Source of the DNA: Eledone cirrhosa
Taxonomy: Eukaryota
Direction of reading: 5' to 3'
DNA: 64,000 nucleotides
Assembly: GCA_964016885.1 (NCBI GenBank)
Contig: CAXHJY010000231.1
Span: forward strand, 63,975 to 127,974
The number at the start of each line of letters is the position of its first letter. The first letter of the stretch is position 1. Below are positions 29,380 to 30,105 of this stretch, in pieces. The position numbers were made by a program, and so were the translations under genes. The notes under the pieces were generated by a model that was given only the letters and a program-made list of their open reading frames with translations, was not told where the DNA came from and did not search any database.

Positions 29380-29400
29380 GGAGACTCGACTGAGAATGAC

Positions 29401-29480
29401 CTCCCTGATGACGCAATGAAATTCTCAACAGTTCATTACGTAACTGTCTTTATCCCATTGCAGAAACTAATTAGTTGGAG
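29401..29480 (+). ncRNA. Type I hammerhead ribozyme (family D, repeat 1)
   Basis: CTCC-CTGATGA-c-GCAATG...(ACAGTT..AACTGT)...CATTGC-a-GAA-ACTAATTAGT-T-GGAG. Confidence 0.75.
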
Positions 29481-29953
29481 TGAAAATTTAAGCAAGTAAG
29501 TTAATTTTTTTTTTTTTTTTTCAAAAAGTTTTCTTATTTTACGTCTTTTATATTATTGTTCTGCATTCTCCTGCATTGAACCACCTAGGTACTATGACAT
29601 AACCTGTGTATTTGCTGGGATTAGCGTACATCTGTGCGCTTATGTTAGTAGATATATTAAATTATCTATATTTATCTCCAAATCACTGATTTGTCGAGCA
29701 AACCTGCCAAAACCACTTCTAGATTTTTTTGGGGGGTGTTAGTAGGCGCCTGTCATCTTACCATCCCATTCCTACTGACTAGCCTCTGTGTCACGTGATT
29801 GATTCTTTAGAATCGGCCATATGATCAGTGGCAGTGAGAATTTTCAGTAGCTGGAATCCAGTCCTCGATAGCTGTTCCATTTACCGAATTATTATTATTT
29901 TTATATGAGTCCCCAGTGTCCGCGCATCGCCTGGAGACTCGGCTGAGAATGAC

Positions 29954-30033
29954 CTCCCTGATGACGCAATGAAATTCTCAACAGTTCATTACGTAACTGT
30001 CTTTATCCCATTGCAGAAACTAATTAGTTGGAG
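29954..30033 (+). ncRNA. Type I hammerhead ribozyme (family D, repeat 2)
   Basis: Same motif 553 bp downstream. Confidence 0.75.
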
Positions 30034-30105
30034 TGAAAATTTAAGTAAGTAAGTAAGATAATTTATTTAAATTTTTTTTAAAAAATGTTCTTATTTTACG
30101 TCTTT

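Follow-up and report, generated by a model that had tools for sequence, protein, structure and literature searches.

The Penelope-like elements (PLEs) of the Hydra clade, a group of retrotransposons, insert into (TA)n and carry hammerhead ribozymes. As described in PMC8557442, they lie as partial tandems with pseudo-LTRs, and their 3' ends fall at a TAT junction. A type I hammerhead with a short, near-palindromic stem III sits near that end, and the base of its stem II is frequently mismatched. The minimal hammerheads of PLEs are poor cleavers by the account of PMC4209133, which also offers a circle model for the origin of PLE pseudo-LTRs. The PLE of the anole (Poseidon PAc of Anolis) has been studied in vitro. 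Reverse transcription starts internally in this element, downstream of the hammerhead, and requires RNA 3' of the start; cleavage by the hammerhead is dispensable for insertion, and in the experiments of PMC11167929 no reads end or start at the cut.

Hammerheads are found in retrozymes, too. The non-LTR retrozymes of animals are ORF-less, structured and multi-copy, with one type I hammerhead and a GC content below 45% (PMC7229834; bioRxiv 10.64898/2026.07.22.740005). The preprint proposes that they are non-autonomous PLE derivatives moved through circular RNA, and a circle model is in print for them in PMC7229834 as well. Their canonical hammerhead is described as having a 6-bp stem I, a 4-bp stem II and a loop–loop contact; cleavage is reported for only 1/9 of the Xenopus retrozyme dimers in the preprint. 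In plant LTR retrozymes, as outlined in the same two sources, an ORF-less middle is flanked by two terminal repeats that both carry a hammerhead. Their hammerhead is type III and their repeats are true LTRs, accompanied by PBS/PPT and a 4-bp TSD.

The locus described here, a gene-less stretch of ~730 bases that we call the mini-element, is, to judge from its sequence features, very probably a non-autonomous, retrozyme-like element of the Hydra type. It has every one of the Hydra-clade features listed above, together with one that emerged from the present analysis and that the two appear to have in common in structure and motif: predicted twin bulged hairpins after the 3' junction. It differs from the Hydra-clade PLEs of PMC8557442 in the length of its unit, 553 nt rather than 2–3 kb, and in having an AU-rich hairpin between the ribozyme cut and the 3' end. 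It is not an autonomous member of that clade, as the single ORF for RT and C-terminal GIY-YIG endonuclease is absent.

Like the animal retrozymes, the mini-element fits the description just given, with the difference that it comprises 1.3 units dispersed in (TA)n instead of a dimer or array. Its 553 nt exceed the 170–400 nt given in PMC7229834 and fall inside the 51–972 of the preprint. Its hammerhead is of the PLE type, with a stem I of 4–5 bp and a stem II region of 51 nt, and does not conform to the canonical retrozyme form. For the mini-element the clade of the putative helper can be named from cis-features, in contrast to the animal retrozymes. Poseidon PAc, which also has an AT-rich target, starts reverse transcription 85–92 nt past the hammerhead cut, compared with 76–81 nt in the mini-element; it is autonomous and starts without target homology, whereas the mini-element has a TATAT match. 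The parts of PMC11167929 that we draw upon report no bulged hairpin for it. From the plant LTR retrozymes, which it resembles in outline, the mini-element is set apart by its type I hammerhead, in which stem I is the open helix, and by its PLE-type ends.

Layout and boundaries

The window—the whole 64,000-nt stretch of DNA that was analysed—contains the mini-element at 29380–30110. Inspection of the sequence shows (TA)n microsatellites of ~2 kb on each side, the insertion target at 27438–29379 on the left and its counterpart at 30107–32270 on the right; a target-site duplication is unreadable because the flanks are themselves (TA)n. Two direct repeats form the ends, 29380–29553 (174 nt) and 29933–30110 (178 nt), offset by 553 nt and 92.7% identical by BLAST. 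The initial annotation had described ~170-bp terminal direct repeats 553 nt apart, and this layout stands. The repeats are not identical, however, but differ by 9 substitutions and one 4-nt indel in the 178 columns of a global alignment, and the 3' end does not stop where it had been placed; it runs to 30106–30110, a TATAT that is indistinguishable from the (TA)n flank.

Both repeats read on the forward strand. The upstream one is a 5'-truncated pseudo-LTR, an extra 0.3 unit with 97 nt before the predicted cut and 77 nt after it. The downstream pseudo-LTR contains hammerhead 2 (core at 29958) and ends 76–81 nt beyond its cut. From cut to cut (29477–30029, +) the unit has 38% GC and is a candidate monomer RNA; it folds more stably than shuffled sequences, with a z of -4.0 when linear and -5.0 when circular. 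A more-than-unit copy of an ORF-less, ribozyme-bearing unit was what the locus had first been taken for, and 1.3 units are indeed present, with no ORF: ATG-started frames in the mini-element reach at most 29 codons, and stop-free frames at most 80 codons. A TATA-like stretch at 29653 and a TCACT at 29683 were not accepted as evidence of a promoter.

Downstream of the cut in the upstream repeat lies the AU-rich hairpin (29494–29541, +), and then TATAT (29549–29553, +). The latter marks the place where the downstream repeat merges into (TA)n, and is presumably where reverse transcription starts. Junctions of the TATAT type are found also in a sister family in the window, family B (4502–5040), and in L003 and L037, two of the metagenome loci discussed below.

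Hammerheads

Each repeat carries a type I hammerhead, and the particulars first ascribed to both—a large stem II with its own hairpin, C-A at the stem II base, GUU as the triplet and a stem III that is a palindrome—are found in both. Hammerhead 1 occupies 29401–29480 (+). Its stem I is CUCC/GGAG, 4 bp (29401–29404/29477–29480); the core is CUGAUGA...GAAA (29405–29411); the stem II region spans 29412–29462, 51 nt; and stem III (29466–29475) is a perfect 10-nt palindrome, ACUAAUUAGU. The stem II region of both hammerheads consists of the C-A mismatch, a 6-bp stem and an inner 6-bp hairpin, and the predicted cuts fall after 29476 and 30029. By our hammerhead descriptor the window has 11 motifs, of which 9 possess a palindromic stem III; each of 60 dinucleotide shuffles has 0. 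The mini-element hammerhead was set against those of File S2 of PMC8557442 and against the 38 motifs of the metagenome loci discussed below, and agrees with them in its type I form and its place near the 3' end. Rfam gave 0 matches at gathering score in the window; its 3 matches to the mini-element at E<=10 were discarded as unrelated and due to chance. Neither viral nor metagenome contigs contain a match to DNA patterns of the mini-element hammerhead. Two further hammerheads in the window, at 17418 (+) and 3885 (-), have stem II regions of about 50 and 90 nt; their stems III are perfectly palindromic, and they are located in TA-flanked stubs.

The active fold of the mini-element ribozyme was computed at -11.9 kcal/mol and a fold that sequesters the core at -14.7 kcal/mol. 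With misfolding favoured in these calculations and a stem I of 4 bp, the ribozyme of this copy looks weak as a monomer. The self-duplex of stem III was computed at -9.0 kcal/mol, and the predicted monomer misfold, taken with the pairing of stem III to a second copy, fits the double-hammerhead logic as laid out in PMC4209133. The short stem I is not typical of the family. About 73% of reads in X16, one of the sequencing runs considered below, have an allele at 29951–29953 that gives a 5-bp stem I; both repeats of the mini-element carry the minority allele, with 4 bp.

Predicted twin bulged hairpins

Hairpin 1 (29558–29584, +) is made up of 4 bp, a 2-nt 3' bulge and another 4 bp, followed by CAC. 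It stands at +81 from the cut, immediately 3' of the junction, within the range of 40–94 seen in the Hydra-type loci described next; its lower stem is GUUC/GAAC, versus GCUC/GAGC in Hydra-type PLEs. It is a candidate RT-binding site. Hairpin 2 (29675–29699, +) comprises CUC, a 6-bp stem, a UC bulge and GAGC, and is like the second hairpin of Hydra-type 5' UTRs. It is one of 2 matches to its descriptor in the window; 14/5000 shuffles of the unit give any match, and 0/5000 one of at least 6 bp, with the proviso that both hairpin descriptors were composed after sight of the mini-element. The two hairpins are 118 nt apart, compared with mostly 54–82 nt in the loci.

A search with the EN fragment from the window brought up 7 relatives, and a profile based on their alignment led to 143 metagenome loci. 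The best 80 of these, all of them Hydra-type RT-endonuclease loci and some of them multiple copies of the same families, have 38 hammerheads, in 36/80. The hairpin lies 3' of 19 of the 32 testable hammerheads (9 by the strict descriptor, 10 by the relaxed); among the 13 without it, 5 enter AT repeats at that point. Strict matches number 10 in the 2,483 nt that make up the zone 25–95 nt after the cuts, as against 13 in 192,090 nt elsewhere. For 41 distinct motifs selected by sequence only, pairing occurs in 126 of the 164 upper-stem cells; when the arms are shuffled, the mean is 72 and the maximum 98. The pairing is seen only with a 2-nt bulge, other bulge sizes yielding 49–57 cells. A count of covariation (32 double changes, 0/500 shuffles) was set aside as biased, because 16 of its 18 rows had been chosen for pairing; the selection by sequence only is the unbiased test.

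Layouts like that of the mini-element, with a 2.1-kb ORF replacing 380 nt, occur in L037 (702-aa ORF) and L003 (726-aa ORF), whose 5' pseudo-LTRs continue into the hairpin and whose 3' pseudo-LTRs continue into AT repeats. Near the ends of Hydra-type PLEs the GCUC...GAGC bulged hairpin occurs twice, 54–82 nt apart, in L001, L002, L003, L009, L010 and L020, and the twin arrangement at this spacing is found also in L022, L027, L030, L035, L037, L060 and L072. Among the Hydra consensus sequences published with PMC8557442, the hairpin can be recognized by eye in 3/6, is partial in 1 and was not seen in 1. One Naiad consensus from that source has a matching hairpin in its 3' UTR, which indicates that the hairpin is not exclusive to the Hydra clade.

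Resemblance holds at the level of structure and motif; the model score is weak, and among the 80 loci there is no partner at the level of DNA. A covariance model of the Hydra-type hairpins scores hairpin 1 at 14.2 bits (E 0.36), third of its 4 matches in the window, and misses hairpin 2 and family B. BLAST of the mini-element against the 80 loci gave no real match, and a helper with a long stem II is not among the 38 locus hammerheads, whose stem II regions are 12–25 nt rather than 51. Run on viral contigs, the Hydra-type profile detected no relative. Elsewhere in the window, 61554–61597 scores 29.3 bits with the Hydra-derived hairpin model, and 43392–43436 (+), the second-best match (16.8 bits, E 0.069), comes directly after a TATA run and is possibly the start of another Hydra-type element.

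The literature searched, which left repeat databases and most subscription papers outside its scope, contains no description of twin hairpins or of small elements with a long stem II. The main text of PMC8557442 uses none of the terms hairpin, stem-loop and bulge. The twin hairpins are probably an undescribed cis-signal. The class of element and the circle idea are already published, and the general kind is known; what is new is the conservation of the twin hairpins, the length of stem II and the lopsided divergence of the repeats (below), and the family itself may already have been catalogued.

Copies, sister family and neighbors

We compared the mini-element with 4 of 18 listed sequencing runs, two of which, X1 and X16, share one species label. 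Contigs matching it number 1,263 in X1, with identities from 80 to 100% (337 at 99% or more, 390 at 95–99%, 339 at 90–95% and 197 under 90%), and 7,851 of the 12.47 million RAD reads of X16 match as well. Runs from other organisms gave 22 contigs (X5) and 20 (X10); some are AT-rich chance matches, and the real pieces cover the internal region and the ribozyme of the mini-element. The summed depth of contigs gives no copy number, and was not used as such. The mini-element represents a large, varied family that is also present in other species; the initial annotation had set a dispersed family against a single-copy local duplication, and it is the family that these contigs and the relatives in two other organisms reveal. 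The 40 best-supported of 164 variant sites leave the stems of hairpin 1 untouched and include a single site in its loop (29567).

Certain read patterns were rejected. Read ends at 29660–29663, 29887–29890 and 29973 are not taken as ends of elements; they coincide with AATT, and we interpret them as RAD restriction sites. Nor does a joint from 30103 to 29550 (9 reads, 2 starts) prove an array or a circle. It is uninformative because 29489–29535, the hairpin region of the first repeat, was skipped in that comparison, and uninformative for circles because a circle junction reads the same as the genomic repeat.

Family B (4502–5040, +), a distant homologous sister on sequence grounds, has a 483-nt unit, a long-stem-II hammerhead whose stem III is palindromic, and an AU-rich hairpin. 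Aligned globally with the 553-nt unit it scores -12, versus a mean of -80 and a maximum of -36 for shuffles (n=300), and the score of its junction segment is reached by 2/2000 shuffles. Its 3' end lies 75 nt beyond the cut, at TATAT, and its upstream repeat is followed by the bulged hairpin; insertion into (TA)n holds for this family as it does for the mini-element copy. In the copy at 4502–5040 the 5' piece is inverted and there is a tail of 30 nt, both of them signatures of PLEs. A dispersed copy at 53460–53744 (-) is 5'-truncated, shares the 3' end and is 99.3% identical. The 5'-truncated copies, fixed 3' end, inverted piece and tail are features of family B; the mini-element's own family has a single copy in the window.

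The window is rich in TA-flanked hammerhead elements and PLE debris. A decayed, 5'-truncated RT-EN at 36705–37960 (+), with several stops and frame changes, resembles Hydra-clade PLEs when compared by eye with File S7 of PMC8557442; no hammerhead was found 3' of it. Palindromic TA-flanked stubs occur at 3079–3278, 4217–4411, 14756–14938, 32315–32684, 54098–54331, 61455–61651 and 62675–62901, several with short hammerheads; the bulged hairpin is present in the stubs at 3079–3278 and 4217–4411, and at 61566. Other PLE pieces are at 1–1676, 43734–43978, 25850–27437 (-), 35060–36100 and 62990–63604 (-). They include a GIY-YIG end, which has a long 3' UTR, a minimal hammerhead core (1561) and a second copy of 245 nt (98.8%). 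Also among them are an RT fragment and a Neptune-like EN that bears a hammerhead-like core at 35850. Two related copies (85%) of a short-stem hammerhead element, TA-separated, lie 491 nt apart at 16610–17341 (-).

LINE-type ORFs recognized with Pfam (APE and RT, RT and zf-RVT, and RT fragments) are at 6529–9759, 17659–21156, 43857–48064 (-) and 39535–40395 (-). Two 610-nt copies, 56376–56983 and 57088–57696, are 96.9% alike, with ~100 nt of TA repeat between them. An exon-like stretch preceded by AG at 63940–64000 (+) is one that we take to be LicD-like, and the SINE-like repeats at 15986–16204 and 63700–63900 are presumably octopus-type; by its SINE motifs the host would be an animal, probably an octopus.

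How the copy may have been made

Differences between the two repeats of the mini-element are lopsided. Before the cut there is 1 substitution in 97 nt; after it there are 8, along with the indel (Fisher p=0.011), and the AU-rich hairpin alone accounts for 7 of the 9 substitutions and the indel. The repeats are identical over the stem II insert, and have minority alleles in common at 29940–29941 and 29951–29953, sites that vary in the family. L003 shows 0/93 nt different before the cut and 3/47 after it (pseudo-LTRs 1–140 and 2470–2609), in what is a single assembled contig, possibly mosaic; this distribution speaks for a jump at the cut. One pass around one circle predicts identical repeats, and so the differences in the mini-element speak against the simplest form of the circle. 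To account for their lopsidedness, one of four things is therefore needed: later change in a mutable hairpin, a misassembled T-run, a switch of template close to the cut, or a master from which the differences were inherited. The T-run, 17 nt in the first repeat, is a place where a consensus error is possible.

Our reading, to which we give somewhat better than an even chance, is that the mini-element derives from a Hydra-clade PLE and would be copied in trans by the RT-endonuclease of such PLEs from ribozyme-cut, unit-length RNA. Transcription would read through both hammerheads, the palindromic stems III would pair, and the 553-nt unit would be cut out. A helper protein would bind the twin hairpins, nick (TA)n, and prime at TATAT, just 5' of hairpin 1. 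The RT would then copy ~77 nt back to the cut, cross it, and go on for one unit and 97 nt more. To cross it, the RT would either follow a circular RNA or jump to another monomer at its cut 3' end. Purely linear copying would lose one unit per generation if tandem masters were not rebuilt, since the hairpins are 3' of the RT start and hence never at the 3' end of the new copy; for the same reason, a linear transcript of the mini-element copy could yield only stubs of at most 174 nt. For a full copy the template has to extend past the cut, whether as a circle, by way of a jump from one cut monomer to the next, or within a master array. The origin put forward in the initial annotation, slightly more than one turn of reverse transcription around a circular RNA, is plausible for the mini-element, though at well below even odds; a jump between cut monomers we consider rather unlikely. 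Doubtful, too, and offered in that spirit, is the composite idea that the twin-hairpin signal, common to Hydra-type PLEs and ORF-less minis, loads the RT just 3' of its start site, and that the lopsided divergence, in the mini-element and in L003, records RT jumps between ribozyme-cut monomers at the cleavage site. Evidence from other elements weighs against any role for cleavage: the anole PLE can insert in vitro without it, and in the majority of the PLE and retrozyme ribozymes assayed it is weak or absent.

An uncut tandem precursor is a serious contender, if short of an even chance. A linear transcript from a master with at least two tandem units would suffice, were the RT to start internally and to fall off 97 nt into the preceding unit; the hammerhead would then be a passenger, and dispersed 1.3-unit copies would be dead ends. 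Such a model has been proposed for the anole PLE, where by the evidence of PMC11167929 cleavage is unneeded, and retrozyme arrays are described as common in animals (PMC7229834; bioRxiv 10.64898/2026.07.22.740005). The two repeats do differ, as array units could, but units that evolved independently would not be expected to agree over stem II and in their minority alleles and yet to diverge after the cut. No array was seen, moreover, and the joint of 30103 to 29550 is no evidence for one.

Had the element been a free-standing retrozyme, its circular RNA moved by some other RT such as that of a LINE, the hairpin matches would be due to chance. LINE RTs are present in the window, the covariance-model score of hairpin 1 is not significant by itself, and no Hydra-type locus matches at the DNA level. 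We think this improbable, nevertheless: the two hairpins stand in the correct order, and the first is at +81, where the 3' end has just been passed; this, the TA target, and the inversion and tail of family B obey the rules of PLEs; and a poly(A) tail is absent. Least likely is a local duplication or assembly artefact in a region rich in microsatellites. Assembly across long (TA)n flanks is difficult, and the 17-T run may be a consensus error, but the boundaries of the repeats agree with the layout of PLEs. Moreover, two runs of one organism contain many copies of the sequence and two other organisms have it as well, which refutes local duplication as an account of the family. Copying from cut, unit-length RNA is the reading we retain.

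Implications

That the mini-element is a real mobile element is well supported, and it offers a hint about what its ribozyme does. It bears on the role of the hammerhead in PLEs and on the origin of pseudo-LTRs, which PMC8557442 and PMC11167929, in the portions that concern us, leave as open questions. The helper of animal retrozymes has so far been inferred only by co-occurrence and by similarity of pseudo-LTRs. Unless we misjudge it, the mini-element, a high-copy, ORF-less sequence of 553 nt reduced to a ribozyme, an RT start and two conserved hairpins, suggests which cis-signals make up the minimal set and to which clade the helper belongs. Counting where paired repeats differ could separate the circle, the jump and the tandem precursor from one another. 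The jump, if true, would give the hammerhead of PLEs a job to do, and would account for the regeneration of pseudo-LTRs.
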